A stretch of DNA of 64,000 bases from assembly GCA_021741325.1 (NCBI GenBank), contig JAIOYC010000001.1, positions 3,906 through 67,905 on the forward strand, in the 5' to 3' direction. Positions 1 through 53,800 of the stretch are shown piece by piece. Both the position numbers and the translations under genes were made by a program. How positions within the stretch are numbered: position 1 is the first letter of the stretch; each line of letters starts with the position of its first letter. This DNA comes from Alphaproteobacteria bacterium (GTDB lineage Bacteria; Pseudomonadota; Alphaproteobacteria; Micavibrionales; Micavibrionaceae). A model generated the notes under the pieces. The model made no database searches and was not told the origin of the DNA. It saw only the letters and a list, made by a program, of their open reading frames with translations.

Positions 1-443
1 ACCGCCGGCAAAGCCCTGAGTGGGCGGATCTTTCCTTCGATCATGTGATTTGCAATCCTCCCTATATGGACGCGGGTGCGCACATGATTTCTCCTCATGA
101 GGCCAAAGCCGTGGCCCATGGCCATCAAGACAAAGGGGCCTCGATCAAGGACTGGCTCGATGCGGGTTATTACGCGCTGAAATCCGGGGGAAGCCTTACC
201 CTCATTCACCGGGCGGATCAGACCGATAAAATCGTGCGGGGGCTGGGCCAGCGGTTCGGTGCGGTGGAGATTATTCCGCTCTGGCCGCGCACGGGCGTTC
301 CCGCCAAACGGGTTATTATCCGCGCGATCAAACACCGGAAATCCCCCGCCCTGCTTCATCAGGGCCTTGTTTTGCACGGCGGTGATGGCGCCTACACGCC
401 GGAGGCTGAAAATATATTGCGCGGGGGCGCGGCGTTGCTGTAG
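1..443 (+). CDS. SAM-dependent N6-adenine-type methyltransferase (NPPY motif), 3' part; the 5' end lies left of the window
   Basis: The frame is open from base 3 (..SFDHVICNPPYMDAG..). It carries the NPPY catalytic tetrapeptide of N6-adenine/TrmN6-like methyltransferases. Stop codon at 441-443. Confidence 0.7.
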   Translation, partial: RRQSPEWADLSFDHVICNPPYMDAGAHMISPHEAKAVAHGHQDKGASIKDWLDAGYYALKSGGSLTLIHRADQTDKIVRGLGQRFGAVEIIPLWPRTGVPAKRVIIRAIKHRKSPALLHQGLVLHGGDGAYTPEAENILRGGAALL

Positions 444-453
444 GACTGGGCCC

Positions 454-1728
454 ATGAAAATCCTTCTTGTGGGCTCGGGCGGACGGGAACATGCGCTGGC
501 ATGGAAGCTGGCGCAATCGCCGTCTTGTGAAACGCTTTATTGCGCCCCCGGCAATCCGGGGATTGAATCGGTCGCCACCTGCGTGAAAATCGACGCGGAA
601 GATGTCGAGGGGCTGACTGCCTTTGCGGTGGCAAATAAAATAGACCTGGTGGTTGTGGGACCGGAAGGCCCTCTTGTGGCCGGACTGGCCAGCAGCATAG
701 CCGCCGCGGGTATTCCGGTTTTCGGTCCCAGCACCATGGCCGCGCAGCTGGAAGGCTCCAAAGCCTTCATGAAGGATCTCTGCGCGAAATACGGCATCCC
801 GACGGCCGCCTATGGCCGGTTTACCGATTTTGAAAAAGCCGCCGCCTTCATCGAAACCCGGACTCCGCCCATTGTGGTCAAGACGGACGGGCTGGCCGCC
901 GGGAAAGGCGTTTTGATCTGCATGACCCATAAAGAAGCCCGGGAAGCCGCGCAGGGGATGCTTTCCGGTCAAAGCTTCGGGAAATCCGGCACGGAGATCA
1001 TCATCGAGCAATTCCTGGACGGAGAAGAGCTGAGCTATTTCGCGCTGGCGGATGGAAAAACGGTTCTGCCCTTCGGATCCGCTCAAGACCATAAGCGGGC
1101 TTTCGACGGCGACAAAGGGCCCAACACCGGCGGCATGGGGGCTTATTCGCCAGCCCATATGATGAATGCGGAGCTGGAGGATAAAATCCTGGCCCGGATC
1201 ATCACCCCGACCGTCGAAGCGATGGCCCGCGAAGGAGCGCCGTTCACAGGCGTTTTGTTCGCCGGAATCATGGTGGTGAAAGGCGAGCCGCTTTTGATTG
1301 AATTCAACGCGCGCTTCGGGGATCCGGAATGTCAGACCCTCATGATGCGCCTGCAAAGCGATCTGGTGGAGATCCTGAACGCGGGTGCGCGCGGACATCT
1401 TGCCGAAATTAAAGATCAGGTCCGCTGGGCGCCGGACATCGCCTTGTGTGTCGTGATGGCCGCCAATGGTTATCCCGGAACGTATGTGAAAAACACGCCC
1501 ATTCAAAATCTGGACGAAGCCGCAAAGGCCAGGGACGCGATCATATTTCATGCCGGAACGGCGCGGAATGAAAAGGGAGAGATCATGAGCACGGGTGGGC
1601 GTGTTCTGGGTATAACGGCCCGTGGAAAAACCGTCGAGGATGCGCGCAAGGGGGCCTATGCGACGGCAGACATGATCGAATGGCCGGAGGGTTTTTACCG
1701 CCGGGATATCGGAGCGCGGGCACTTTGA
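454..1728 (+). CDS. purD: phosphoribosylamine--glycine ligase
   Basis: The internal ATG at 454 gives MKILLVGSGGREHALAWKL. ATP-grasp blocks GPNTGGMGAYSP and EFNARFGDPE are present. The longer track ORF from 259 is an upstream extension overlapping the previous gene. Confidence 0.95.
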   Translation: MKILLVGSGGREHALAWKLAQSPSCETLYCAPGNPGIESVATCVKIDAEDVEGLTAFAVANKIDLVVVGPEGPLVAGLASSIAAAGIPVFGPSTMAAQLEGSKAFMKDLCAKYGIPTAAYGRFTDFEKAAAFIETRTPPIVVKTDGLAAGKGVLICMTHKEAREAAQGMLSGQSFGKSGTEIIIEQFLDGEELSYFALADGKTVLPFGSAQDHKRAFDGDKGPNTGGMGAYSPAHMMNAELEDKILARIITPTVEAMAREGAPFTGVLFAGIMVVKGEPLLIEFNARFGDPECQTLMMRLQSDLVEILNAGARGHLAEIKDQVRWAPDIALCVVMAANGYPGTYVKNTPIQNLDEAAKARDAIIFHAGTARNEKGEIMSTGGRVLGITARGKTVEDARKGAYATADMIEWPEGFYRRDIGARAL

Positions 1729-1746
1729 ATTTCTAAGGGCCGGGCG

Positions 1747-2493
1747 TTACTGACCCAGGATATCATCAAAGACAGGAATATCTTCCACCAGAAGCTCTTC
1801 GTTCTCCAGCGTGACGAATCCTTCTTTTGTCACGTTCACGTCGCTTCGAAACAAAGAGTCCTTGAACATCATATGGGCGACCAGATGAAACGTTCCCGCA
1901 GAATCCATGGTCTTGAGCATGATCGGTTTTAAAATTTTCCCGATCGCCATGCGGGCCGCCGGCGGGGGTTCCTCTTTCCAGGCAATGTCATCCACATTCT
2001 CGGAAATGAGAAACCGGCCATGGCGTCCCCGCACATAGGTGAAGAAAAACCGGACATACTCGCCGACATTTTCTTCCTCAAGCCGGAGAGGGGCCGTTTT
2101 GTTCAGCGCATACACAGGAACATTCGTGAAATCCAAAACAATGGCTTTTCCAGGCTTGCGAACGGCATAACAAGACAGGGTGGATCCTGGCGCGGTGGAA
2201 GAGACTTCAAAAAATGAAAATCCGGGATAAAAAGGGATGTCGACGCTGAGGATCTCCGTTTCCACGGGATCGAATGAAAATCCGGAGAGAGCAGAATTCA
2301 CATCTTCCAGAACGGCGGCAATCTGAGACAGATCCAACCTTTGATAAGCATCTCTGAACATGAAAATCCATACTAAGACAAACATTATCCGCCCGGTCGA
2401 GCGCCCGGTTCCGGAGCCTATCACGTTCTGATAACCCTGTGGAAGAATCGAGGTGAGAATCGGAGAATAAATCCGGGATAACATTATCCGCAT
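1747..2493 (-). CDS. hypothetical protein, start uncertain (alternative ATGs at 2385 and 2361)
   Basis: Long ORF convergent with purD. I recognise no motif. No candidate start has a convincing SD. Confidence 0.5.
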   Translation of the reverse strand: MRIMLSRIYSPILTSILPQGYQNVIGSGTGRSTGRIMFVLVWIFMFRDAYQRLDLSQIAAVLEDVNSALSGFSFDPVETEILSVDIPFYPGFSFFEVSSTAPGSTLSCYAVRKPGKAIVLDFTNVPVYALNKTAPLRLEEENVGEYVRFFFTYVRGRHGRFLISENVDDIAWKEEPPPAARMAIGKILKPIMLKTMDSAGTFHLVAHMMFKDSLFRSDVNVTKEGFVTLENEELLVEDIPVFDDILGQ

Positions 2494-11239: not shown

Positions 11240-11965
11240 CTAATGAGCCGCCTCGACCAGCGATAGAAATTCGGTGAATCGCGGTGTCTGGGGACGGGTT
11301 AAAATAGAGGACGGGCCCTGTTCCACGATTTTGCCTTCATCCATGAATACAATGCGGTCCGCCGCCTTGCGCGCGAAATTCAACGCGTGGGTGATGAGAA
11401 AAACTCCAATGCCGCGCTCCTTGAGGGTGGAAAGCTTGGCAAGAATGCGCACGGTTTGTTCCACGTCCAGCGCAGAGGTAATTTCATCCATCAGGATATA
11501 ACGGGGATTAAGGATCAGGGCGCGCGCCAGAGCCACGCGTTGACGTTGCCCCACGGAAGCCTGATTGGGATAATTTTCGATGAAATTTCCCATCTCAAAA
11601 AACGAGATCAGCTCTTCAATATCAGCGGCGGCGTCAGGGTTCCGCCCGCGCGCGGGGAGCATGATATTTTCCCGCAACGTCAAATGCGGCCACAGGAACA
11701 GGGATTGAAACACAACGGTCAGGTGCGGCCATGGAGGCTCTATCGGAACTGTCGCCGCGCCCGGAAATTCATGAATCCGCCCATCGATTTCAACGGAGCC
11801 TTTGTCCGGATAATCCAGAAGCGCCAGAGCCCGCAGCAACGTCGTCTTGCCCGTGCCGGATGGACCGATGACACAGGTGATCTCCCCGGGCGCGATCGCG
11901 ATATCGACCCCGCGCAAAACCTGCTTGTTTCCGAAAGATTTTTCTATCCCGGAGGCGATAAGCAT
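11240..11965 (-). CDS. ABC transporter ATP-binding protein (polar amino acid type) with an atypical signature motif
   Basis: Walker A GPSGTGKTT. The signature reads ASVGQRQR instead of LSGGQ. Walker B/D-loop is ILMDEITSALD, H-loop is ITHAL. Its start overlaps the stop of the upstream binding-protein gene by 1 nt. Confidence 0.9.
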   Translation of the reverse strand: MLIASGIEKSFGNKQVLRGVDIAIAPGEITCVIGPSGTGKTTLLRALALLDYPDKGSVEIDGRIHEFPGAATVPIEPPWPHLTVVFQSLFLWPHLTLRENIMLPARGRNPDAAADIEELISFFEMGNFIENYPNQASVGQRQRVALARALILNPRYILMDEITSALDVEQTVRILAKLSTLKERGIGVFLITHALNFARKAADRIVFMDEGKIVEQGPSSILTRPQTPRFTEFLSLVEAAH

Positions 11966-12804
11966 CAGTTGATAACCTCGTAAGGCTTGGCAACAAGAGA
12001 GTACGATTCCAAGCTCGGATCATATTTTCTTATTATTTTCTCGATCGTCCCATTGAGCAAAAGTGTCCGGATTCCGGAATCGCAAAGATGTTTAAGCTTT
12101 ATTTCATCCGGATGAAAAGCCAGTGGCGGAGACGCGTAAGCCCTTATCGGCTCTTCGCTTAACAGCTTTATTTTTCCCGGATTATTTTCAGTATAGATCT
12201 TAGCTGAGGATTTATGCAGGAAGGCAACATCCGCTTTTCCCGTGGCCACCGCTTCCAGGACCATTGAATTGTCATTCATTTGGGCCAGCGCGTATTGCTG
12301 CGCTTGGGGAAACATTTCGGTCGCAATACTCTGCCCTATTTCCCCGTCAATGGTGCTGATTTTAACCAAAGGATCGTTAAGGGGCCCAAATCCTTTGTTA
12401 AAACGGTTCTCATCGGCCCGCACAAAGGCGTGGGTCACCCCAAAATTCGAAGGTATGGAGAAAAGCACCACTCTTGCTCTTTCCGGTTTCTCTAGTAATC
12501 CTGAACATAAGGCGTCATACCGCCCGGATTGAAGCCCTTCGTACATGTTGGCAAAAGCGACTTCTTCAGTCCATTCCACTTTTAGATTAAGCACTTTCCC
12601 CAGCGCTTCCATTTTCTCAACCATAATGCCAGAAAGCGCGCCCGTGTTTACATCCTTCACCGTTTCGGGAGGATAAACGATATAGCCGCATCTTAGCGTA
12701 TTGGTTTTGAGAACGCGCTCGTAAGCGCTTTCCGCGTGGGCGGGAGCGGCGAAGAGAAACGCCAGCAATGTCAGAAGAGCTTTTTTCATGTTCCTTTTCC
12801 TCAT
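11965..12804 (-). CDS. ABC transporter substrate-binding protein (family 3), tandem paralog 3
   Basis: Signal peptide MKKALLTLLAFLFAAPAHA. YERVLKTNTLRCGY..KVEWTEEV..GRYDALC blocks are shared with the two upstream paralogs. ATGA overlap with paralog 2. Confidence 0.85.
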   Translation of the reverse strand: MRKRNMKKALLTLLAFLFAAPAHAESAYERVLKTNTLRCGYIVYPPETVKDVNTGALSGIMVEKMEALGKVLNLKVEWTEEVAFANMYEGLQSGRYDALCSGLLEKPERARVVLFSIPSNFGVTHAFVRADENRFNKGFGPLNDPLVKISTIDGEIGQSIATEMFPQAQQYALAQMNDNSMVLEAVATGKADVAFLHKSSAKIYTENNPGKIKLLSEEPIRAYASPPLAFHPDEIKLKHLCDSGIRTLLLNGTIEKIIRKYDPSLESYSLVAKPYEVIN

Positions 12805-13622
12805 GGTTGATAAGGTTTCGCCAGAGGCAGGTACAAATCCTGCGCCTTGTGGTTTTTCAGGATTTTACCAAAGGTCCCATCGTCGAGAATATCGGTGATG
12901 GTGTTGTTGATCATGTCGGCAAAGCGCAGATCCCCCGCGGGCAGGAGCATCACGTTCGGCTTGATCGCCACGGGCTCTTCGAAAAGGCTGACCAGTGTGC
13001 CGGGATTTCCCTGCAGATAGTCGTGCAGCGTGACCTGGTCGACGAAAGCGACCTGCCCCTTGCCCGCGGTCAGCCCGACCAACATGTCGGAAATCTGTGT
13101 CTGTTCGGTATAGCTTACGGTCTTCGCAGCGGAATAATCCCGCTGAATGATCTGCGACGGCACGGTGCCGTCGACATACGCGAACGTAATCTCCTTTGCA
13201 TTCAAACCTTCTAGATTCTTGATAGTCCCAAGTAAGGGATCGCCCTTGCGAACCACCGCGCGCAGATAGGAATAACTGACCGGCACCGAAAACGCCACCA
13301 GCCGCGCGCGCGCGGGCGTAGGCCAGAAATTCGCGCATACGGCATCATATCGTCCTGTCGCCATGCCCTCGATCGCCGTGGCCCATCCCACTTCTTCGAC
13401 CCATTCGACACCCAGGCTCAGGCGCTTGGCCATTTCCATCGTGAGGTCATAGAAAATGCCGCCCAATTGTTTGGTATTGGGATCAATGGTGAAGGCGGGC
13501 TCCCACTGCACATAGCCGCAGCGGATTTTCCCGCTTGCCATCACGCGGTCGTAGACGGTTTCCGCGCGGGCGGGAAAAGCCGTTGCCAGAAAAAGCCCCA
13601 GCGTCAGAAAAAATTTTTTCAT
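12801..13622 (-). CDS. ABC transporter substrate-binding protein (family 3), tandem paralog 2
   Basis: Signal peptide MKKFFLTLGLFLATAFPARA. YDRVMASGKIRCGY..GVEWVEEV..GRYDAVC. Confidence 0.85.
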   Translation of the reverse strand: MKKFFLTLGLFLATAFPARAETVYDRVMASGKIRCGYVQWEPAFTIDPNTKQLGGIFYDLTMEMAKRLSLGVEWVEEVGWATAIEGMATGRYDAVCANFWPTPARARLVAFSVPVSYSYLRAVVRKGDPLLGTIKNLEGLNAKEITFAYVDGTVPSQIIQRDYSAAKTVSYTEQTQISDMLVGLTAGKGQVAFVDQVTLHDYLQGNPGTLVSLFEEPVAIKPNVMLLPAGDLRFADMINNTITDILDDGTFGKILKNHKAQDLYLPLAKPYQP

Positions 13623-13741
13623 TCCTTCGTTTCCTTCTTACGGCCTTTGTATCTTACATAGTTGAATTTTTTTCTTTTTCATTTCTTTCTTCTACGCTGC
13701 TTCCTGCTCCCGGAAAGGAGAGAGGAAGAGCGGCGGGTCCG

Positions 13742-14581
13742 TTATTCCCCCGCCATCGGTGCGAGAGGACGTTTGAAATCGCCCTTCGGATCGTGTTTTT
13801 TAAACATGTTCTCCAGCTCCCCCGAAACCGTCAATTGCCGCATCACATTGTCGATCAGGGCCTTGAAGGCGGGCTGTTCAGGGGCTATTCCGAAACTGAC
13901 CGCATAGGTGTAGAGAGGCTTGTCGAGGGTCGCCTTGCGCAGGATTCCGGGATTGGCTTTCTCGAAAGCCTCGAACACGGTGGGCAGCACGAAGCCGATA
14001 TCGGACTTTCCGGTGGATACTTGTAGCAGCATCTCGGAAATGCTCGCGTTCTGCGGCAGGATATCCATGTGCGCTTCCGGAAGGAGTTTTTGGGCGGCCA
14101 CGGTGGCTCCCTCGCCATCCAGCCCCGCGACCTTCACGCTTTTCCAGTCCACGGACTCGAACGACATGTCGAATTTCGTGTTGTCCGTCTTCACATAGCC
14201 GTTCACCGGCACATAGGCATAGGGCGTGGTGTAATCCATCTGCCCGGCGCGCGGCAGAGTGAACACGCTGCTGCACACCATGTCGAAGCGCCTGTTTTTG
14301 AGATCCTGGGGGAAGGTCGCGAAACTGACCTGCTCCGCCCACTCCACTTTCAAACCCAGCTCCTTGGCGATGGTCTCAATAAGATCGACGCTCAGGCCGG
14401 AGAAGGCTCCCGTATTTTCATCATGGAGCGTGAAGGGGGGCTCTATAAAATAACCGCACCGGATCACGCCGGATTGGAGGACTTTCTGATAGACGGATTT
14501 TGCGGTATCCACTTCATCCTGAGCAAAAGCTGGAAAACAGAACATGCTGAAAAGCAGTGTAAAAATTACAGGCAATTTCAT
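13742..14581 (-). CDS. ABC transporter substrate-binding protein (family 3), tandem paralog 1
   Basis: The internal ATG at 14581 gives signal peptide MKLPVIFTLLFSMFCFPAFA. YQKVLQSGVIRCGY..KVEWAEQV..RRFDMVC. The track extension to 14764 overlaps sufT and is rejected. Confidence 0.85.
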   Translation of the reverse strand: MKLPVIFTLLFSMFCFPAFAQDEVDTAKSVYQKVLQSGVIRCGYFIEPPFTLHDENTGAFSGLSVDLIETIAKELGLKVEWAEQVSFATFPQDLKNRRFDMVCSSVFTLPRAGQMDYTTPYAYVPVNGYVKTDNTKFDMSFESVDWKSVKVAGLDGEGATVAAQKLLPEAHMDILPQNASISEMLLQVSTGKSDIGFVLPTVFEAFEKANPGILRKATLDKPLYTYAVSFGIAPEQPAFKALIDNVMRQLTVSGELENMFKKHDPKGDFKRPLAPMAGE

Positions 14582-14607
14582 TATTCTCTCCCTGGTTTTT
14601 GTCCTGT

Positions 14608-15033
14608 TTAAAAAAACATGTTCAGTTGCATCTTTGCCGTCTCGGCCATCATGGAAGGGTCCCAGGAGGGATCCCATACAATCTCGACGGTTACCCCGCC
14701 CACGCCTTCCAGCGGCAAAACGGCGGCCTGCACCCAGCCCGGCATTTCCTGCGCCACCGGGCATCCCGGCGATGTAAGGGTCATCTTGATGTCCACGTCA
14801 TGGACCCCGTTTTCCGGTTCGGCAACCGCAACGCTGTAGATCAGGCCCAGCTCATAGATATTGACCGGGATTTCGGGATCGTAGATCTCCTTGATCGCCG
14901 CCTTGATCTTTGGCCAAAGCACATGATCCAGCGGGGCGGAGACATGGGTGGGCTCGGCGAGCTCGTCGTAGCCCTCCTCGCCCAGCGCGTTTTTTACCAT
15001 CTCTTCGCTTGCCACCGGCTCCAGCTTTGTCAT
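14608..15033 (-). CDS. sufT: DUF59/MIP18-family Fe-S assembly protein (SufT-like)
   Basis: DPEIPVNIYELGLIY and MTLTSPGCPV motifs. 4-nt overlap with sufS. Confidence 0.8.
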   Translation of the reverse strand: MTKLEPVASEEMVKNALGEEGYDELAEPTHVSAPLDHVLWPKIKAAIKEIYDPEIPVNIYELGLIYSVAVAEPENGVHDVDIKMTLTSPGCPVAQEMPGWVQAAVLPLEGVGGVTVEIVWDPSWDPSMMAETAKMQLNMFF

Positions 15034-22097: not shown

Positions 22098-23924
22098 TTA
22101 TACCTTTGTCTCTTCAAACAATTCCGCCAATTTTCCAACTAGGGCCTGCGCCAGCTCGTCCGCGTCGGTGATGGTTAGGGCGCGTCCGTAGTAGCGCGTC
22201 ACATCGTGTCCGATGCCAATCGCGGTTAACTCCACCATGCTGCGATCCTCGATCCAGCGAATGACGCTGCGCAGATCCATCTCCAGAAGGGCCGAAGGAT
22301 TCACGGAAAGCGTGGAATCATCCACGGGGGCGCCGTCGGAAATCACCATCAGAATCTTCCGGGCTTCAGGTCGGCGGGCCAGACGGTTATACGCCCAGAC
22401 CAAGGCCTCCCCGTCGATATTCTCCTTCAGAATTCCTTCCTTCAGCATCAGGCCCAGATTTTTGCGCGTGCGGCGGATGGGAGCCGCTGCGGATTTATAG
22501 ACAATGTGGCGAATATCGTTCAGGCGGCCGGGATTCTCCGGACGGCCGTTTTGCATCCAGAGTTCCCGGGATTTCCCCCCTTTCCAGGTGCGGGTGGTGA
22601 ATCCGAGAATCTCGCTTTTCACTCCGCAGCGCTCCAGCGTCCGGCTGATGATATCCGCGCTCATAGCCGCGATAGCGATGGGACGGCCCCGCATGGAGCC
22701 GGAATTATCAATCAGAATGCTCACCACCGTGTCGCGGAAATCCATCGTCTTTTCCTGCTTGAAGGTAAGCGGCACCGTGGGATTGGCCACAATGCGCGCC
22801 AGGCGGGAAGAATCGATGATCCCTTCGTCGAGATCAAAAATCCAGGAGCGTTTTTGGCGCGCCATGATCTTGCGCTGGAGCCGGTTGGCAAGCTTCGTGA
22901 TAACGCCCTGATGACCCGCAAGCTGGCGGTCCAGCAACGCGCGCAGACGGGTCAGTTCTTCCGGATCGGCGAGATCCTGCGCGTCGATCTCCTCGTCGAA
23001 CTGCGTGGTGTAGATCCTGTACACGCCGCCGGGGCCGGAGACATACCCCTCCGGGCGTGGTGCGGGTGCACAAAAACCATCCTCCTCGCCCGCGCTGTCT
23101 CCCGGCGATTCCTTATCCGCGCCGGTCAGGGATTCATCCTCTCCCGGCAGAGAATCATCCTGCCGGTCTCCCTGATCGGCCTCGGTCTCCTGGTCGCCGC
23201 CTTCCTCTGAGTGCTCAGCCGGCTTCTCAGACCCCGGCGCTTCGGGAGATGCGCCCGAAGACCCTTCCGCGCCTTCTCCAGCCTCAAATCCCAGTGCGGC
23301 CAGAAGTTTTCTGGAGCGCGCGGCGAAGCCGGCCTGGTCGTGGATGGAGAGAAAAAATTCATCGAGCCGCTGGCCGAGCCGTTCCTCGATCCAGGGACCC
23401 CACAGCGCGGCCAGCGTCCGGGCGGACTCGGGAACGGGCTCCCCGGTGAGGGCCAGGCGGCCCAGCACATGAAACGCGTCAAAGGCCGGAATTTGTTCCC
23501 GCGCAGAAGCCTGGGCATAGCCGGTCCGCGCGCATTTTTCCGCCAGAACGGCGTTCATATTCGCGCCCGCGCCTCGCATCTCCGCGAAGCCCAGCGCTTC
23601 GCAGCGCGCCTGCTCCAATGCCGCGAAGACCTGGGCGGCCTCACCCTCTTGGGGCGCGGCGCGGACATGAATTTCCGGATCATGATGAGCGAGATAGAGC
23701 GCGTTGGCGTCCGCGCATCCCCGCGCCAGCCGCAGAGACCCGGGCTCAATCCTACGATCCTGGTCCAGGGCGGGCAAAGGAAGGCGGGGGATTTTACGTC
23801 CTTCTACCCTTCCGGTGGGCGGTTCATCGACCGAGAAAGAGGAGTCCAATTCTTTCCGACCCGCGATCGTGCGCACGACGGCGGCGGTGACGGACTTAAA
23901 ATTCTCAAGAAACGGTTGAGTCAT
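22098..23924 (-). CDS. cobT: cobaltochelatase subunit CobT-like protein (acidic linker plus C-terminal vWA domain)
   Basis: 608 aa. MIDAS-type [14 protein letters not shown], a central acidic low-complexity region, and an N-terminus typical of alphaproteobacterial CobT. Confidence 0.85.
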
Positions 23925-24025
23925 GCTGACTTTTTACAGGGCGCAGCGAGTGGCGTCGAGTGCGGTTACAGGTAGGATCTTAAAAACATTTGACAAACCT
24001 CTTCAAATAGGGTTTTCATATCTTC

Positions 24026-24109
24026 ATGACAAACCTTCGGACAAACACGCCGCGCCGACCACGACCACGTACCGCCTGACCCGCGCGCCGTGATATTTTT
24101 GTTTGTCTG
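24026..24109 (+). promoter_or_regulatory. candidate arginine attenuator: 17-codon Arg-rich uORF (24026-24079) overlapping a terminator-like hairpin plus T-run
   Basis: The uORF encodes MTNLRTNTPRRPRPRTA* with 5 Arg codons (cgg, cgc, cga, cga, cgt). Arm cacgccgcgc (24046-24055) pairs 9/10 with gcgcgccgtg (24083-24092), followed by atatttttgtttg. The element lies in the 280-nt leader of the arg operon. Confidence 0.35.
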
Positions 24110-24205
24110 AATCCCCAGACTTTTAATTTCCCCAAAAATAAAACGCCGCGCCGGGCTTCCGCCCCGGACAGCCCTGTTGTACGTTTAAACAAGAAAGACA
24201 AGACC

Positions 24206-25264
24206 ATGAAAAAGAGCCAAAAAACAATTCATCTCGATAAAATCAGCTCCGTCACGCGGAACCTGAATCTTACGCACGAAGAAGCGCTGACCGACGATCT
24301 GTCCACCGCCATGGGCACGGTTCTGGCCGTCCAGGTGCTGGAAGACAAATCCATTTACAACGAGATGGAGCTGCCCTCAGGCCGGATGTCGCGCCTCAAG
24401 AAAGGTGACGTGATCGCCGTGGCGCTGGGCGAGCGCATGGCCCTGAAGGGCTTTGCCGGGCACCTGCCCAAGAGCCTGAAAACCGATGATGTTATCCACC
24501 TTCTGAATTTCGGCGGGATCGCCGGCGAATGCACCAGCGCCAACACGAAGGAGGTCGGCGACCCCCTGCGGATCCGGGTTCTGGGCGGGATCGCGCGCAA
24601 GGGAAAGCTTGTGAATATAGGAGATGCGCGGCTGTTCAGCGAGGCTGATCGCCTGACCAACGACATTCCCCTCATCATTACGACGGGTAGCAGCATGGAC
24701 AGCGGCAAGACCACGGTGGCGGCGGAGATGACCAAGACCCTTGTGCGCATGGGCATGAAACTGGCCGGCGCGAAGGTGACGGGCGTAGGGGCAATGCGGG
24801 ATCTCTACAAGATGGAGGATTACGGCATTCGCGAAACCGTGTCCTTCGTGGATTGCGGCATTACCTCCACCGCGAATATCGGCGCCGACCAAGTCATCCG
24901 CATGACCAAGGGCGCCCTGAACTATCTCGCCAAGGGACGGCCTGATGCGATCGTCGTGGAATTCGGGGACGGGCTGATGGGCCGCTACGGCGTGCGCCCC
25001 ATTCTGGAAGACCGCGAAATTCAGAAAAATGTGCGCCTTCATGTCGGCTGCGCGCGCGATCCCGTGGGCGCGGTGAAGCTGGGCGAGGATTGCGCGGCCC
25101 TGGGCCTGCCCATCGACGTGATGAGCGGTCCCGTGACCGACAACGAGGTAGGGCAGGATTTGATCCGGGAGCATATGGACGTCCTAGTCTACAACGCCTT
25201 CAACCCCAACAACCGGTGGCTGGACCTGGTGCTGTCCCGGTGGGCGGTGGATTATGCGGCATAA
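24206..25264 (+). CDS. hypothetical protein with a BioD/CobQ/DUF1611-type P-loop; first gene of the arg operon
   Basis: 352 aa. TTGSSMDSGKTTVAAEM fits G[ST]xxxxGK[TS]. 11-nt overlap with argC. No GNAT, ArgJ or ArgE motifs recognised. Confidence 0.75.
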   Translation: MKKSQKTIHLDKISSVTRNLNLTHEEALTDDLSTAMGTVLAVQVLEDKSIYNEMELPSGRMSRLKKGDVIAVALGERMALKGFAGHLPKSLKTDDVIHLLNFGGIAGECTSANTKEVGDPLRIRVLGGIARKGKLVNIGDARLFSEADRLTNDIPLIITTGSSMDSGKTTVAAEMTKTLVRMGMKLAGAKVTGVGAMRDLYKMEDYGIRETVSFVDCGITSTANIGADQVIRMTKGALNYLAKGRPDAIVVEFGDGLMGRYGVRPILEDREIQKNVRLHVGCARDPVGAVKLGEDCAALGLPIDVMSGPVTDNEVGQDLIREHMDVLVYNAFNPNNRWLDLVLSRWAVDYAA

Positions 25265-26261
25265 AATCAAAGCTTCCATCATCGGCGCGACCGGTTATAC
25301 CGGGCTGGAACTTATCCGGTTTCTGGCCGCTCACCCGCGCGTGGAGATCGTGCATCTGACATCCCGTCAGCATAAGGACGAGGCCATCGGCGCTGTGTTC
25401 CCGCATCTGTCCCATATGAAGGCGCGGATCACGGATGCGGACCATAAAACCGCCGCCCGGGACAGCGATGTTGTCTTTCTGGCCCTTCCCCACAAGGCGG
25501 CGCAGGATGTGGTGGCGGATTTGCACGGAACGGTGAAGCTCATCGACCTGTCCGCCGATTACCGGCTGGACGACCCCGCTTCGTATGAGAAATATTACGA
25601 GGCGCATAAGCATCCCGGCCTGCTGAAAGAAGTGGTCTACGGCCTGCCTGAAATAGTGGATCACGAAAAAATTGCGGCCGCGCAAACGGTCGCCAATCCC
25701 GGCTGCTTCGCGCTGCTCGCCCAGCTTTTGCTGCACCCGTTTAAAGGTCAAATAAAGCACGCCGATATTTTCGCTGTGACCGGCTCCAGCGGCGCGGGCA
25801 AGGCCCCTACGGAGGGGACGCATCATCCGGTGCGCAACCACAACATCAAAAGCTACAGCGTCAACACCCACCGCCACATCCCGGAGATCGTCCGAGGCGC
25901 GGGAATATCGGAGGCGCAGCTCAATTTCGTGCCATCCTCCGGCCCCTTCACCCGGGGCATCTTCGCGCAGGCCTTCATCACTCTGGCTTCTCCGTCCTCA
26001 CTCTCTTTTTCTGCGGGAGAAGCCGCCTACGCCCCCGCGCCCTTTGTACGGGCGATGGACACGGTCGCCCTTGCCAATGTCATGGGCTCCAATTTCGCGG
26101 ATCTGAGCTTTAAAATGGGAACCGATGGCCGTATTCTGGCGCAAGGCGTGATCGACAATCTCGTCAAGGGCGCGGCGGGGACCGCGGTGCAAAACATGAA
26201 TTTGATGTTCGGCCTTCCTGAAACCGAAGGCCTAATGGCCCTTTCCCCTTTATATCCTTAG
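25254..26261 (+). CDS. argC: N-acetyl-gamma-glutamyl-phosphate reductase
   Basis: IIGATGYTGLELIRFL NAD(P)-binding N-terminus and catalytic-Cys block ANPGCFALL. Confidence 0.92.
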   Translation: MRHKIKASIIGATGYTGLELIRFLAAHPRVEIVHLTSRQHKDEAIGAVFPHLSHMKARITDADHKTAARDSDVVFLALPHKAAQDVVADLHGTVKLIDLSADYRLDDPASYEKYYEAHKHPGLLKEVVYGLPEIVDHEKIAAAQTVANPGCFALLAQLLLHPFKGQIKHADIFAVTGSSGAGKAPTEGTHHPVRNHNIKSYSVNTHRHIPEIVRGAGISEAQLNFVPSSGPFTRGIFAQAFITLASPSSLSFSAGEAAYAPAPFVRAMDTVALANVMGSNFADLSFKMGTDGRILAQGVIDNLVKGAAGTAVQNMNLMFGLPETEGLMALSPLYP

Positions 26262-26270
26262 GATGAAGAC

Positions 26271-27173
26271 ATGAAAAAAAACACGATTCCAAAATTCCTG
26301 ATCAATGCTTTTTACGAGAGCAAGTTCAGTGACAACCTTTTCATCGTCAAGGCGGGCGGGAAGATTGTCGAGGACGATACGGCGCTGGACAGCCTGATCC
26401 GCGATATCCGCGATCTGACCTTGCACGGAATCAAGATTATTTTGGTCTATGGCGGCGGCCACGCGCTCGATGAAGCGGCGGCAGCGCGCGGCGTTCCGGT
26501 AGAGAAGCGGGACGGACGGAGAGTGACCAGCGCGGCTAGCATGGGCATTATGAAAGAAATCGTGGGTGGCGCGCTCTCGCTGCGGCTTTACCAGTCCATG
26601 GCACGCAACAATCTGGAAGGCCTGACCTTCAACGCCGTCCCGCCGGGCTGGATGAATGTAGAGCTTCGCCCGAAAGCCCCGGTCGATTTCGGTTTTGTAG
26701 GGGATATCCATGCCGTTCATGCCCGCCCTATCCGCCGCCTGCTCAAGACGGCGGATTTTATCGCCGTGCCCTGCCTGGCCTGGGCGCAGGATGCGCAAAC
26801 GCTCTGCAACATCAATGCCGACACCATCGCCACGGAACTGGCCATCGGCACACAGGCTGACAAGCTGATTTTCCTAAGTGACGTGGACGGGGTCCATATC
26901 GGCGGGCAGACCGCCTTTATCATCACGGCGGAAGAAATCCCCGCCCATATCCAAAGCGGCGCCGTCACAGGCGGCATGAAGGTGAAGCTGGAGAACTGCA
27001 AGCGGGCCATGGAGGCCGGCGTCCGGCGCATTCACCTGATCAACGGCCTGCGGGAGGACGCGCTGCGCAAGGAAATTTACGAACCCGTCGGTCCTGGTAC
27101 GATGCTGATGCAGGAGTCCGAGCGGGCAAGCTATATGACGGAAATCGAGACGCAAAAACTGATCGAGGGATAA
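26271..27173 (+). CDS. argB: acetylglutamate kinase (amino-acid kinase family)
   Basis: FIVKAGGKIVED, ILVYGGGHALDE, NINADTIA and GGMKVKL blocks. 300 aa with no fused acetyltransferase domain. Confidence 0.85.
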   Translation: MKKNTIPKFLINAFYESKFSDNLFIVKAGGKIVEDDTALDSLIRDIRDLTLHGIKIILVYGGGHALDEAAAARGVPVEKRDGRRVTSAASMGIMKEIVGGALSLRLYQSMARNNLEGLTFNAVPPGWMNVELRPKAPVDFGFVGDIHAVHARPIRRLLKTADFIAVPCLAWAQDAQTLCNINADTIATELAIGTQADKLIFLSDVDGVHIGGQTAFIITAEEIPAHIQSGAVTGGMKVKLENCKRAMEAGVRRIHLINGLREDALRKEIYEPVGPGTMLMQESERASYMTEIETQKLIEG

Positions 27174-27174
27174 C

Positions 27175-28374
27175 ATGACCGATAGCACCCAAAACATCAT
27201 CAATGAAACCAAAAACCTCCTGATCGAGACCTATGCCCCTCAGCCTGTTGTTCTGACCCATGGCGAGGGCGCGTATGTCTGGGACACGGACGGGAAGAAA
27301 TACCTGGATTTTGCAATCGGGATCGCCGTGGCGTCTCTGGGCCACGCGCCCCAAGCGGTTTTAAAGACGATCAACGATCAGGCCGCCAAAATGATGATCT
27401 GCCAGGCCTCTTACGCGACGGAGCCTAAACTGTGCGCGGCGAAACTCCTGACCGAAAACAGCTGCTTCGACCGCGTTTATTTCTGCAACAGCGGCACGGA
27501 ATCGGTCGAGGCCGCCTTGAAATGCGCGCGCAAATGGGCCTATGACGCCAAGGGCGAGCATTGCAACGAGATCATCGCGTTCCGGAACAGTTTCCACGGG
27601 CGCACGTACGGCGCGGCCAGCGTGACCGAAAAACGGATGAGCCAGCCTTATTTTGGCCCCTATATTCCCGGTGTTCATTTCGCAACCTTCAATGACCTAG
27701 ACTCCGTGAAGGCCTTGGTGAGTGAGAACACGGCAGCGATCATCGTGGAGCCCATTCAGGGTGAGGGTGGGCTGACTCCTGCCACGCAGGATTTCATGAA
27801 GGGCCTGCGCGCGTTGTGCGACGCGCATAAAATCGTCTTTATTCTTGATGAGGTCCAGGCCGGATCGGGCCGGATTGGAACACTCTTCGCCTATCCGCAA
27901 TTCGGAATAGAGCCTGATATCGCCTGTGTGGCCAAGGGACTTGGGGCGGGCTTTCCCGTGGGCGCGATGCTGGCGAAGGAAGAAGTCGGCCGTGCTATTG
28001 TGCCCGGGACGCACGGCACCACATTCGGGGGAAATCCCCTGGCGTGCGCCGTGGCGGCCACGGTCCTCACCGAGATGCTGAAAAAAGGCTTCATGGAGAA
28101 TGTGCAAAAAGTCAGCGCTTATTTCGTGGAGGGACTGAAGAAAATCCAGCGAGATTCCAACAAGATCACCGATATTCGCGGCATGGGCCTCATGATCGGT
28201 GTGGACACAACCATCGAGATCAAACAATTCATGCGCGCGCTGCAGAAAAACGGGCTCCTGACCACGCAGGCGGGCTCCAAAACTCTGCGGCTTACGCCCC
28301 CGCTGGTGATTACGCCAGCCCATGCGCAGGAAGCGCTGGATATTCTTGAAAAAACACTGCGCGAAGAAAGTTAA
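27175..28374 (+). CDS. argD: acetylornithine aminotransferase
   Basis: Class-III aminotransferase: ILDEVQAGSGRIGTLFA and PLP-Lys block DIACVAKGLGAGFPVGA. Starts 1 nt after the argB stop. Confidence 0.92.
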   Translation: MTDSTQNIINETKNLLIETYAPQPVVLTHGEGAYVWDTDGKKYLDFAIGIAVASLGHAPQAVLKTINDQAAKMMICQASYATEPKLCAAKLLTENSCFDRVYFCNSGTESVEAALKCARKWAYDAKGEHCNEIIAFRNSFHGRTYGAASVTEKRMSQPYFGPYIPGVHFATFNDLDSVKALVSENTAAIIVEPIQGEGGLTPATQDFMKGLRALCDAHKIVFILDEVQAGSGRIGTLFAYPQFGIEPDIACVAKGLGAGFPVGAMLAKEEVGRAIVPGTHGTTFGGNPLACAVAATVLTEMLKKGFMENVQKVSAYFVEGLKKIQRDSNKITDIRGMGLMIGVDTTIEIKQFMRALQKNGLLTTQAGSKTLRLTPPLVITPAHAQEALDILEKTLREES

Positions 28375-28378
28375 ATCC

Positions 28379-29293
28379 ATGCCCCCTCCCATCCGCCACT
28401 TCATCAACCTGCCTGACATTCCCCCTGAGACTCTCAAGGGCATTCTCGCCCACGCGCACGAGATGAAGCGCAGCAAGTTCCGCCCGCCCCAGATCTTCGA
28501 CGGTCTCTCCCTCGCCATGGTGTTTGACAAACGCTCCACCCGTACGCGCATGAGCTTCGAGGTCGCCATGAAGCAGCTCGGCGGTCACACGATCGTCATG
28601 AACGCGGAGGAAATGCAGATCACGGGATCGGAGAGCCTGGAGGACACGGCCAAGGTGCTTTCGCGTTTCGTGGACGGGGCCATGTTCCGGATCTCAAGTC
28701 ATGAGAAGATAGAGGAAATCGCGCGCCACGCCACGATCCCCATCATCAACGGCCTGACCGACCGATCCCATCCCTGCCAGATCATGGCCGATCTGATGAC
28801 CATCGAGGAAAAACTCGGAAGCGTACAGGGCCGGAAAATCGTCTGGCTGGGGGATTACAACAACGTGGCCATGACCTTCGCGCAGGCCGCCCCCGTATGG
28901 GATTTCGAGCTGGTGGTATCATGCCCGGCGGATCTCAAGCCGGAAGCGACAGCGGCGCACGTTGTTTATATCGAGGATGCTTCCAAGGCCGCCGCCGGGG
29001 CGGACGTCATCGTCACCGACACCTGGGTGTCCATGGGACAGGAAGGCAAATCCATTGAAAAATTCATGCCCTATCAGGTCAATCCGACGCTGATGAAAAA
29101 GGCGAAGAACGACGCCATCTTTATGCACTGCATGCCCATCCACCGGAACGAGGAAGTCACCGACGACGTGCTGGCCACGTCCGCCAGCGTCATCTACGAC
29201 GAGGCCGAAAACCGCCTGCACGCGCAAAAGGCCATTCTGGCCTGGTGCCTGGAGGAATCCGGCGTCTCGGTGCAGAAGAGCTTTGGGTTTTGA
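28379..29293 (+). CDS. argF: ornithine carbamoyltransferase
   Basis: The internal ATG 4 nt after the argD stop. STRTR, HPCQ, DTWVSMGQE and HCMP motifs. Confidence 0.92.
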   Translation: MPPPIRHFINLPDIPPETLKGILAHAHEMKRSKFRPPQIFDGLSLAMVFDKRSTRTRMSFEVAMKQLGGHTIVMNAEEMQITGSESLEDTAKVLSRFVDGAMFRISSHEKIEEIARHATIPIINGLTDRSHPCQIMADLMTIEEKLGSVQGRKIVWLGDYNNVAMTFAQAAPVWDFELVVSCPADLKPEATAAHVVYIEDASKAAAGADVIVTDTWVSMGQEGKSIEKFMPYQVNPTLMKKAKNDAIFMHCMPIHRNEEVTDDVLATSASVIYDEAENRLHAQKAILAWCLEESGVSVQKSFGF

Positions 29294-50898: not shown

Positions 50899-53800
50899 AT
50901 GCCACAATCTCTTATCCAGAAAGCTCTTAAAAAGCTTCCGGCCAACGCTCCCGAGCAACAGAAAATCCTTCTGAAGGAGCTTGCCGGGGATCTCAGAAAA
51001 GACGACCTGGATCAGATTGATGACCAGCTCCTCGCGGCCACGGCCCTTTCTCACTGGTCTCTTTTAAAAAACGTGACTCAAAATGTCTCCGATATAAAAA
51101 TATACGCGCCCGCGACCCAAAACCCGAAATTCCGAAAAACTCTCATCGATATCGTCAGCGCCGACCGGGCCTTTCTGGTGGACTCGGTGGCGGCGGAAAT
51201 CAACCGAAACAAGCTGCTGATTGATTTTCTCCTTCACCCCATTTTGCATGTTAAATACAACCAGAAGGGCCAGCCTGTCGCGATCTCCCGCAAACCCATG
51301 AAGGGCTACCAGCGTCAGTCGCACATTCATATTCAGATCAAGGATACGATATCTGAAGACGATCTGGCAGAGCTGGAGAAAAGTTTGCGCAAAGTCCTGG
51401 AGGATGTGTATTTCTCCAACCGCGACTGGGCCGCGATGCTCGACAAGCTCCGGGAAACCCGGAGCGATCTTTCCAACGCCCGTACGCGCACCCCTAAGGA
51501 AGAAGTTCAGAAATACTGTTCGTTTCTGGATTATTTATACAACAACAATTTCACCCTTTTGGGATACCGGGAATATCTCTTTTCAAAGGACAAGGGCGAA
51601 TCCGGAGTACGCATCGCCAAAGGCAAGGGCCTGGGGATTTTGCATGAAGATGTGACGCCGGCCTTTATTTGCGAAAAAGACGAGGGCCTCCCCCGCCATA
51701 TACAGCCTCTCAAACGGGCGCTCCCTCCTCTGTCTGTCTCCAAAACGAACCGCCTGAGCACCGTCCACCGCCAGGTGCCGATGGATGTCATCGCAGTGGC
51801 GACCTACGATAAGGATGGAAACGTCAACGGTGAGCGGCTGTTTCTGGGTCTGTTTACATCGGTAACATATTCCCGCAGCGTGGCCGACATCCCTTTCCTG
51901 CGGGAAAAAGTGGAAGAAGTGGTCAGCCTCTCCGGGTTCATTCCGGCTTCCCACGATGCCAAGGCGCTGCGGCATATCTTGGAGAAATATCCACGTGACG
52001 AGCTTTTCCAGATCTCAGAAAAAGAGCTCTTCAGCACGGCGGTCAGCATCCTGCGCCTGCAGGAACGCCAGCGCATCGCACTGTTTATGCGCCGCGATGT
52101 TTTCAGCCGTTACATTTCCTGTCTCATCTATATTCCCCGCGACCGTTTCGGAACAACGTTCAGAAAGCGTATCGGGCGCATCCTGGAAGAAGAACTGCAA
52201 GGGGAAAGTCTTGGGTTCACGACCAGACTCGATGATTCCGTATTCGCCCGGGTGATGTTCATCATCAGGACTCCCCCCGGCAATGGAGTGAAATACGACC
52301 CTGCCCGCATCGAGAAATTGCTCCAGGAGGCCGGGAAAACATGGACGGAACAGCTTTTCGACGCTTTTTCGCAAACGCTGGACAACATCAAAGAGGTTAC
52401 GGATATCTCCCTTAAATACGGCGAAGCCTTTCCCTCGGGCTATACCGGGCATTACTCCGCCAAGGAAGCCGTCTTCGACATCCGGAAGATAGAAACCGTT
52501 CTGGAAAGCGGGCAGGTCGCCCTGGATCTGTATCGTCCCAAGGACCTGGAGCCGCACAGGTTCCGGCTGAAGGTCTTTCATCCCACCGTATCCCTGACCC
52601 TTTCGGACATCATGCCCATTCTGGAGAATATGGGCCTGCGGGTGATTTCCGAGTTGCCGTTTGAAATCAAGCCCCAGGGCGCGGACGCTTCCGTGTGGGT
52701 TCATGATTTTCTGTTGGAAACCCCCGATTCTTCTGAGGTGATCCACGCCGCGGATGTAAAAGAGATTTTCGAAGATGCCTTCGCGAAAATATGGGCCGGT
52801 AAGATGGAGAGCGATTCCCTGAACGCTCTGGTTCTGAGCGCACGGATGAACTGGCAGGAAATTATCGTGCTGCGCGCTTACGTCCATTACCTCAAGCAGC
52901 TTCGCTACCCTTTTGAGCAGCCTTACATCCAAAAAGCCCTCACGGACCACCCGGTTCTGAGCCGCCTGATGGTGAATCTTTTCAAGGCTTTTCACGATCC
53001 CCGGCAAAAGGAACAGCCGGAAAACTACGATAAGGCCATCCGGTACGGCTTGGAAAAAGTCGTTTCCCTGGACCAGGACCGCGTTCTGCGTAGCCTGAAG
53101 GCCCTGATCAACGCCACGCTGCGGACAAATTTCTATCAGCGCGACGAAAACGGCGACCCGAAAGGCTGGCTGTCTTTCAAGCTGGACTGCAAGGCCGTTG
53201 AGGACATGCCCACGCCGCGTCCCTACCGGGAAATTTTTGTCTACTCCCCCCGGGTCGAAGGGGTTCACCTGCGGGGCGACAGGATCGCGCGCGGAGGCAT
53301 CCGTTGGTCCGACCGCTACGAGGACTACCGCACGGAAATCCTGGGCCTAATGAAGGCCCAAATGGTGAAGAACGCCGTGATCGTGCCTATGGGGGCCAAG
53401 GGCGGCTTTATCCTGAGACACCCCCCGGCCGAGCGCGAAGCGCTGCGGAAAGAGGGCATCGAATGTTACCGGATTTTCATACGCGGCCTTTTGGATCTCA
53501 CGGACAATAGACGGGGCGCCAAAATCACCCCCCCTCCCAAGACGGTCCGCCGGGACGAGGACGATCCTTACCTGGTGGTCGCTGCGGACAAGGGAACGGC
53601 TACATTCTCGGACATCGCCAACAGCCTTTCTGCGGAATATGAGTTCTGGCTGGGGGATGCCTTTGCCTCAGGCGGATCCGCCGGATACGACCATAAAAAA
53701 ATGGGCATCACGGCCAAAGGCGGCTGGGAATCGGTCAAGCTTCATTTCCGGCAGCTCAACCACAATATCCAGACCCAGCCCTTCAATGTCGTGGGTGTAG

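Follow-up and report, generated by a model that had tools for sequence, protein, structure and literature searches.

The 64,000-nucleotide stretch of Micavibrionaceae DNA considered here (contig JAIOYC010000001.1, positions 3,906 to 67,905; referred to below as the window) carries an arginine gene cluster devoid of ArgA and ArgJ, raising the question of which protein provides the N-acylated glutamate used by ArgB. Open reading frame (ORF) calling yielded five genes on the plus strand at 24206–29293 in the order X-argC-argB-argD-argF, where X (24206–25264) encodes a 352-residue protein of an unnamed family. The arg-gene neighbourhood of X, the absence of a Pfam or NCBIfam match and an AlphaFold2 (AF2) model together mark it as a candidate N-acyl-L-glutamate synthase. 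In our judgement X very likely takes part in arginine biosynthesis and, going by the sequence data, probably makes the N-acyl-L-glutamate on which ArgB acts, in place of ArgA or ArgJ as step 1 of the pathway. Our analysis covered the 64-kb window and, for the relatives, 10-kb flanks around X, and the gene absences reported below apply to these regions.

The first-pass annotation of this DNA had described a tightly spaced operon of five genes, in exact agreement with the ORF coordinates and strand: X overlaps argC by 11 nt, followed by gaps of 9 nt between argC and argB, 1 nt between argB and argD and 4 nt between argD and argF; we take X to be co-translated with argC. ArgC (25254–26261) was identified by TIGR01850 (320.9 bits versus a cut-off of 233.6) as well as by the Pfam domain Semialdhyde_dh, and ArgD (27175–28374), an acetylornithine/succinylornithine-family aminotransferase, by TIGR00707 (463 bits). 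ArgF (28379–29293, with its ATG start at 28379) corresponds to a canonical ornithine carbamoyltransferase (OTC), as indicated by 388 bits on NF001986 versus a cut-off of 306. The N-acylglutamate kinase ArgB (26271–27173) is somewhat divergent, matching PF00696 only and scoring 145.7 bits on TIGR00761 versus a cut-off of 151.3; compared with family models it scored better as ArgB than as LysZ. The ArgB proteins of X clusters in other phyla reached 189–231 bits on the same TIGR00761 model, and the low score of the window protein may point to an altered substrate or regulation in Micavibrionales.

Six-frame tblastn searches of the whole window with M. tuberculosis ArgJ, a query sequence checked to be identical to PDB 3IT4, and with E. 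coli ArgE gave zero matches, and the sole window match of E. coli ArgA was the kinase domain of ArgB, X not being matched. Likewise, Pfam scans of 35 ORFs of the window, including those of the operon, detected no ArgJ, GNAT, M20 or AstE domains, and the Pfam scan of ArgB yielded the kinase domain alone without a fused GNAT domain. ArgA, ArgJ and GNAT were found neither in the window nor in any of the ~96 X loci. The earlier statement that the operon lacks ArgA, ArgJ, ArgE and a GNAT fusion is thus borne out by Pfam, NCBIfam and tblastn, and it holds for the whole window too. X itself differs from the canonical first-step enzymes in having neither a GNAT nor an ArgJ (PF01960) domain and no sequence or fold kinship with them; the proposed likeness lies in the place within the pathway, namely the supply of N-acylglutamate to ArgB. 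In many bacteria argJ adjoins argC, the position that X holds here.

The association of X with arginine genes recurs across lineages. In one-genome-per-species contigs, from which a locus set consisting mostly of Micavibrionales was drawn with a narrow alignment, the order X-argC-argB-argD-argF was observed in 66/80 loci (Micavibrionales, Haematospirillum and similar metagenome-assembled genomes, MAGs), with argG following next, with or without argH, in 51 of these 66. The same five-gene operon is present in Haematospirillum sp. H4485 and H1815 (L060 and L066), where X is 67% identical to the window protein. For distant homologs, whose gene context was sampled at 25–50% identity, the arrangements were argR-argG-X (L001), argR-X-argC-argD-argB-argG (L005) and argR-X-argC-argD-argF'-argB (L008), where argF' denotes a gene for an N-acylornithine carbamoyltransferase. 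Furthermore, we observed argG-X-argF'-argH-carA-carB in Chloroflexota, argG-argF'-X-argC-argD-argB-(AstE-like hydrolase)-argH in Peregrinibacteria, argR-argG-X-argC-argD-argF'-argB-argH in Steroidobacteraceae and argR-X-argC-argB-argG-argH in a 7-Mb genome. Overall, 97 X-carrying sequences were compared, the window counted, and in 86 of them argC adjoins X; this arrangement is not due to chance. Homologs thus lie beside argC and argB, a point that the first-pass annotation had put forward as a check, with arg linkage in several phyla. As the Peregrinibacteria-type eight-gene operon has genes for B, C, D, F', the deacylase, G and H, X is left for step 1. The proposal that X is a non-orthologous first-step enzyme is therefore well supported, both by this neighbourhood across distant phyla and by an independent prediction in a preprint, to which we return below.

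X belongs to a large unnamed family. No Pfam or NCBIfam model matched X at E < 0.01, and relaxing the limit to E ≤ 10 added just two matches far under threshold, CbiA with 14.7 bits and DUF1611_C with 12.3 bits. Relatives of X comprised >400 proteins at E ≤ 0.001, the best 120 being 68–78% identical to X, and column identity averages 73% across 32 X homologs; judged from its sequences, X is under purifying selection. Among 1.84 billion cluster representatives, the family profile matched 1413 clusters (50% identity) at E ≤ 0.001 and 158 at E ≤ 1e-30, and pattern matches in the one-genome-per-species contigs gave 352 confirmed X relatives. Named members derive from Chloroflexota, Candidatus Peregrinibacteria, Peribacteria, the Patescibacteria group, Planctomycetes, Deltaproteobacteria, Steroidobacteraceae and Haematospirillum (isolates H4485 and H1815), all of them annotated as 'hypothetical protein'. 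The nearest homologs come from MAGs labelled Micavibrio sp., Alphaproteobacteria or Rhodospirillaceae, and some MAGs bear the labels 'Bdellovibrionales' or 'Pseudobdellovibrionaceae' because NCBI taxonomy puts Micavibrio under Bdellovibrionota. A 555-kb contig in a MAG labelled Alcanivorax sp. MAG10 (L082) also ends in a Micavibrio-type X-argCBDF-argG-argH cluster (68% identity); the contig could have been binned wrongly or be chimeric, or the cluster could have been transferred horizontally. In the Micavibrio type species, M. aeruginosavorus ARL-13, nearly the entire arginine pathway is reported to be missing (PMC3189940), and the arg operon therefore belongs to other Micavibrionales lineages.

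The AF2 model of full-length X, with a predicted local distance difference test (pLDDT) score of 83.8 and a predicted template modelling score (pTM) of 0.86, consists of an all-β N-terminal domain (approximately residues 1–150) and an α/β P-loop C-terminal domain. The N-terminal domain (residues 1–148, 24206–24649; pLDDT 91.6 for the domain model), which presumably binds the substrate, exhibits the family-wide invariants K12, Y51, E55, R60, D68, R77 and P88. Modelled alone, it retrieved nothing significant from the PDB by Foldseek (best E 0.6, template modelling (TM) score ≤0.32), and the model suggests that it may represent an undescribed fold. The C-terminal domain contains the P-loop GSSMDSGKTT, noted already in the first-pass annotation and located at residues 161–170 (24686–24715); it is spaced as G-x5-GK[ST], as in dethiobiotin-synthetase-like nucleoside triphosphatases (NTPases). 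Alignment of the family profile with E. coli dethiobiotin synthetase (BioD) by hhalign (probability 80%, E 1.5e-5) paired K168/T169 with K15/T16, K190 with K37, D199 with D54 and E252 with E115, the BioD residues that we take to hold the phosphates, Mg2+ and the activated carboxyl group. Downstream of the P-loop, the BioD-aligned segment spans 24773–24961 and comprises K190 (24773–24775), D199 (24800–24802) and E252 (24959–24961). Among 75 diverse members, K190 and E252 do not vary and D199 is at least 90% conserved; in the family, K168 is likewise invariant and T169 at least 90% conserved. Across 159 sequences, K190, D199 and E252 are each at least 95% conserved.

The best 50 of the 152 Foldseek matches of the full-length model to the PDB at E < 0.001, spanning E 2.8e-6 to 5.7e-5, involved the C-terminal domain alone and were generic SIMIBI P-loop proteins, comprising SRP54/FtsY, HypB, MeaB-like proteins, dethiobiotin synthetase and CTP synthase, with TM scores of ~0.38 when query-normalised and, for BioD, of 0.54–0.59 when target-normalised. 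Searching PDB sequences with the single sequence of X gave zero matches, whereas of the family profiles one reached FtsY and BioD and another BioD only. Weak Pfam matches among the 75 members were to CbiA (30), MobB (29), DUF1611_C (21) and AAA_26 (10). On the basis of these profiles and models, the C-terminal domain of X is closest to dethiobiotin synthetase. It shares with the BioD-like amidoligases, including CobQ/CobB and the N-domain of CTP synthase, the spacing of the P-loop, the Lys that follows strand 2 (K190, corresponding to K37 of BioD) and the equivalents of D54 and E115. It differs from this group by the additional 150-residue N-terminal β domain, by other substrates and another genomic context, and by the score of window X on CbiA (PF01656), 14.7 bits versus a cut-off of 25.4, with AAA_26 (PF13500) also below threshold.

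The first-pass annotation had offered a DUF1611-like identity for X, citing DgcN as a DUF1611 member reported to N-acetylate D-glutamate. This account of DgcN agrees with the literature, but the family assignment was rejected: X scored 12.3 bits on PF07755 versus a 25-bit cut-off (E 0.11), this domain was matched by 21/75 family members at E < 0.01 (best 1.3e-5), and the Rossmann-like DUF1611_N (PF17396) by 0/75. The DgcN structure 7XRJ is absent among the best 50 of the 152 Foldseek matches of the X model, and the family-profile searches of PDB sequences reached BioD and not DgcN. X resembles DgcN (PF07755 plus PF17396) in that both have a SIMIBI-type domain with a G-x5-GK[ST] P-loop, and DgcN is reported to act on glutamate, in this case the D-isomer, to give an N-acylated product; the N-terminal domain of X, in contrast, is all-β without a PDB match. 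The structure search that had been suggested for X recovered the P-loop C-terminal domain, with BioD among the best 50 matches, and left the N-terminal domain unmatched.

We compared the carbamoyltransferases encoded next to X. The window ArgF contains the motifs STRTR, HPCQ, DTWVSMG and HCMP, and its alignment with the Xanthomonas N-acetylornithine carbamoyltransferase and the ArgF' of the relatives shows none of the insertions that characterise N-acylornithine carbamoyltransferases. Its score on NF003384 was 152.8 bits versus a cut-off of 288, whereas the ArgF' of L008, L009 and L011 are N-acylornithine carbamoyltransferases with 370–403 bits. The window enzyme is thus a true OTC needing free ornithine, and N-acylornithine must therefore be deprotected. 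A canonical OTC is paired with X in the window, in the other Micavibrionales loci and in both Haematospirillum isolates. The relatives of X coupled to ArgF', found in Peregrinibacteria-type bacteria, Chloroflexota, Steroidobacteraceae and others, and in some cases joined by an AstE-like hydrolase, recall the routes through an N-acylornithine carbamoyltransferase in Xanthomonas (acetyl) and Bacteroides (succinyl), from which the window differs by its classical OTC. At position 92 (E92 in Xanthomonas), ArgF' has Val in L008 and Gln in all five of L009, L011, L090, L093 and L095 (Peregrinibacteria-type and Chloroflexota), Gln92 being neither the acetyl-type Glu nor one of the succinyl-type residues Ala, Pro, Ser or Val. 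This Gln is thus present in the ArgF' beside the nearest relatives of X outside the Micavibrio group. An AstE/aspartoacylase-family hydrolase is encoded between argB and argH in the Peregrinibacteria-type loci L011 (14055–15089), L012, L090, L093 and L095, and is a likely N-acylcitrulline deacylase replacing ArgE. The Steroidobacteraceae X cluster contains no deacylase gene.

The type of carbamoyltransferase is also reflected in X. Residue 163 (24692–24694) is a Cys, within GTCM, in 98–100% of the ArgF'-linked homologs, and G[ST]SM is found in 32/32 Micavibrionales, such that the Cys163-to-Ser switch correlates with the OTC-type operon. Other changes in the Micavibrionales subfamily replace Asn/His284, beside the conserved Asp285, by Arg and Leu338 by Trp. 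As for additional genes of these clusters, 11 Micavibrionales loci, including L019, L020, L039, L040, L050, L052, L068, L071 and L080 (12277–13371 in L080), have between argD and argF a gene of 337–364 amino acids that is lacking in the window; its product belongs to the guanidino-modifying superfamily, is DDAH/arginine-deiminase-like and ends in GGGAHCM. We considered the added genes of the Micavibrionales arg clusters as N-acylornithine deacylases, namely this DDAH-like protein, small membrane proteins, a Cys/Met-metabolism pyridoxal phosphate enzyme, YjdM and an RtcB-like protein, and found none plausible. The amidohydrolase upstream in L005 and L006 is a TRZ/ATZ-type deaminase-like protein.

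A first-step role has already been predicted for a protein of this kind in the preprint 'GapMind 2026'. Steroidobacter denitrificans grows in minimal medium without ArgA (doi 10.1101/2024.10.14.618325, Appendix 2). It also lacks ArgE, and its arg cluster holds the hypothetical protein ACG33_RS14135 (A0A127FCT3), homologs of which never occur in one genome with ArgA homologs (doi 10.1101/2024.10.14.618325). The same preprint reports a weak Foldseek likeness of ACG33_RS14135-type proteins to DgcN (PDB 7XRJ, E 1.4e-7) and a succinyl-type residue at position 92 in 90% of the neighbouring ArgF', from which its authors predict an N-succinyl-L-glutamate synthase (doi 10.1101/2024.10.14.618325). Window X and the Steroidobacteraceae homolog P0456 are 38% identical over 348 residues (E 5e-69), the link to the preprint protein running via P0456, a family-level relative in a similar cluster, and not via A0A127FCT3 itself. 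Both X and the ACG33_RS14135 type lack a named domain, lie inside an arginine operon and are proposed to replace ArgA, whereas the preprint clusters carry ArgF', in 90% of cases succinyl-type at position 92, and the window carries a canonical OTC. The substrate of the deprotecting step must accordingly be N-acylornithine, with an acyl group that may not be the one predicted in the preprint. Of the DUF1611-like N-acetylglutamate producer envisaged in the first-pass annotation, the candidacy for the first step thus stands and the DUF1611 membership falls, and the relatives are predicted to use succinyl rather than acetyl. As an alternative first-step enzyme, X has already been published as a prediction and is hence no new kind of system. 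New with respect to the preprint is the well-populated Micavibrionales/Haematospirillum subfamily with its coupling to a classical OTC instead of ArgF'. New as well, according to sequence profiles and models, is the fusion of a BioD-like P-loop domain, rather than a DUF1611 domain, to a β domain without a solved relative.

BioD, CobQ/CobB and CTP synthase use an NTP to phosphorylate, and thereby activate, a carboxyl or carbonyl group. Given that X is the first-step enzyme, we slightly favour an ATP-dependent ligase over acyl-CoA transfer, because the full BioD-type NTP/Mg2+ residue set is conserved and these relatives phosphorylate carboxyl or carbonyl groups. ATP-dependent N-protection had been listed as the second option in the first-pass annotation, and the conserved BioD-type residues fit it no less well than they fit CoA-dependent acetyl transfer. 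X would then act as an amide ligase with Mg-ATP held by K168/T169, D199 and E252, and with glutamate and/or the acyl donor presumably bound by the N-terminal β domain. ATP would activate free succinate or acetate to an acyl phosphate stabilised by K190, which the α-amino group of L-glutamate would attack, and ArgB, ArgC and ArgD would subsequently yield N-acylornithine. Conversion of N-acylornithine to ornithine would be left to an enzyme encoded elsewhere, for which ArgE, a monofunctional ArgJ or a DapE-like desuccinylase are candidates. As DapE is a desuccinylase, a DapE-like enzyme could deprotect in the succinyl case, whereas the acetyl case would need ArgE or a monofunctional ArgJ elsewhere. 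The most far-reaching version of this proposal would make X a new enzyme class, an ATP-dependent N-acyl-L-glutamate ligase that combines a BioD-like with a novel β domain and uses free succinate or acetate and no acyl-CoA. It would operate in a hybrid pathway of Micavibrionales and Haematospirillum with a classical OTC and with deprotection by a moonlighting DapE or by X itself; this combination we consider possible, though doubtful.

Several points weigh against a role of X in step 1. The OTC needs a deprotecting enzyme, and none of ArgE, ArgJ or an AstE-like hydrolase was found within 10 kb of X in ~70 Micavibrionales-type loci; our negatives cover the window and flanks, and a bifunctional ArgJ elsewhere in the genome would make such a role unnecessary. 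Arg linkage is absent for a Planctomycetes MAG homolog, which sits after ribosomal protein genes, and for the homolog in L003, which lies beside a divergent RimK-like ATP-grasp ligase (267–1202, minus strand), and a remote homolog (L102) lies beside two divergent CoA-transferase subunit genes (119–1848, minus strand). We found no experimental characterisation of the X family in the literature, and the N-succinylglutamate synthase assignment of the preprint is a self-declared prediction with no experiment (doi 10.1101/2024.10.14.618325). Against the ATP-ligase part in particular stands that DgcN, the sole characterised analogue offered, is described as an acetyltransferase and not as a ligase (doi 10.1101/2024.10.14.618325).

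The lack of a deacylase bears directly on the alternative that X functions like ArgJ, moving the acyl group from N-acylornithine, or from N-acylcitrulline in the relatives, to glutamate, so that a separate deacylase would be unneeded in Micavibrionales and in Steroidobacter-type clusters. Such a transacylase would account for the ~70 Micavibrionales-type loci without ArgE, ArgJ or an AstE-like gene within 10 kb despite an OTC in need of free ornithine, and for the Steroidobacteraceae cluster without a deacylase, S. denitrificans lacking both ArgE and ArgA according to the preprint. However, the Peregrinibacteria-type operons have X together with an AstE-like hydrolase, implying a separate synthase and deacylase, an intact NTP/Mg2+ site is unexpected for an energy-neutral transacylation, and the cycle would still require priming, and we consider an ArgJ-like X quite improbable. 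It is also unlikely that X carries out another arginine-linked ATP-dependent reaction, be it the attachment of a different protecting group or carrier to glutamate, salvage or modification, with an ArgJ encoded elsewhere making N-acetylglutamate. The divergence of the window ArgB fits this alternative, as do the RimK-like ATP-grasp ligase and the CoA-transferases adjoining distant homologs, and in Alphaproteobacteria ArgJ is often encoded outside arg operons. In the complete eight-gene clusters, however, X is the sole unassigned gene and step 1 the sole unassigned step, and no LysW-like carrier or ATP-grasp gene lies in or beside the operon. The LysW/ArgX carrier pathway was rejected for the window on this same ground, the internal gaps of the operon being ≤9 nt.

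X might instead be an accessory NTPase, such as a chaperone, assembly factor or regulator for ArgC or ArgB, comparable to the SIMIBI GTPases HypB, UreG and MeaB, with step 1 encoded elsewhere. Its nearly invariable position directly upstream of argC, often overlapping it, and the SRP/FtsY, HypB and MeaB-like GTPases among the top Foldseek matches of the C-terminal domain are compatible with this idea. Yet the G-x5-GKT spacing together with K190, D199 and E252 aligns with dethiobiotin synthetase, a ligase, and not with the G3E GTPases, and inspection of the X sequence revealed no NKxD guanine-specificity motif. Moreover, we know of no need of ArgB, ArgC or ArgD for accessory NTPase factors. Together with the anticorrelation with ArgA reported in the preprint (doi 10.1101/2024.10.14.618325), this leaves an accessory function with little probability. 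That X has no arginine role and lies beside argC by an accident of genome organisation is very unlikely: a few homologs are indeed devoid of arg linkage, but the linkage is found in several phyla with varied gene orders, often under argR, and X and argC overlap by 11 nt in the window. We thus retain the synthesis of N-acyl-L-glutamate as the probable function of X. Gene order, membership of the family, arg linkage, the class of fold and the conservation of catalytic residues are observed here, and the reaction, acyl group and cofactor are inferred.

Upstream of X, an intergenic region at 23925–24205 separates it from a divergent CobT-like gene (22098–23924, minus strand) and presumably contains the operon promoter and leader. 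Within this region we detected neither a sigma-70 consensus site nor a LysW-like small ORF, and a promoter/terminator scan gave chance-level counts. Elsewhere in the window, three consecutive family-3 solute-binding protein genes (11965–14764, minus strand) lie beside a gene for an ATP-binding cassette (ABC) ATPase (11240–11965). M. aeruginosavorus is reported to be without known amino-acid transporters, which makes these window genes notable. Finally, an ORF of 1601 amino acids is located at 50899–55704 on the plus strand.

Missing ArgA and ArgJ constitute a recurrent hole in reconstructions of the arginine pathway and, if the proposed function is true, X closes this hole for hundreds of species, including predatory Micavibrionales, Peregrinibacteria-type bacteria and the human pathogen genus Haematospirillum, of which the cultured isolates are an available system for testing the prediction. 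The pairing of X with a classical OTC indicates that the family is not bound to a route via N-acylornithine carbamoyltransferase. With the function confirmed, X-carrying organisms predicted to be arginine auxotrophs would have to be reassessed, and a BioD-like P-loop enzyme that N-acylates glutamate, possibly at the expense of ATP instead of acyl-CoA, would bring new chemistry to the arginine pathway.

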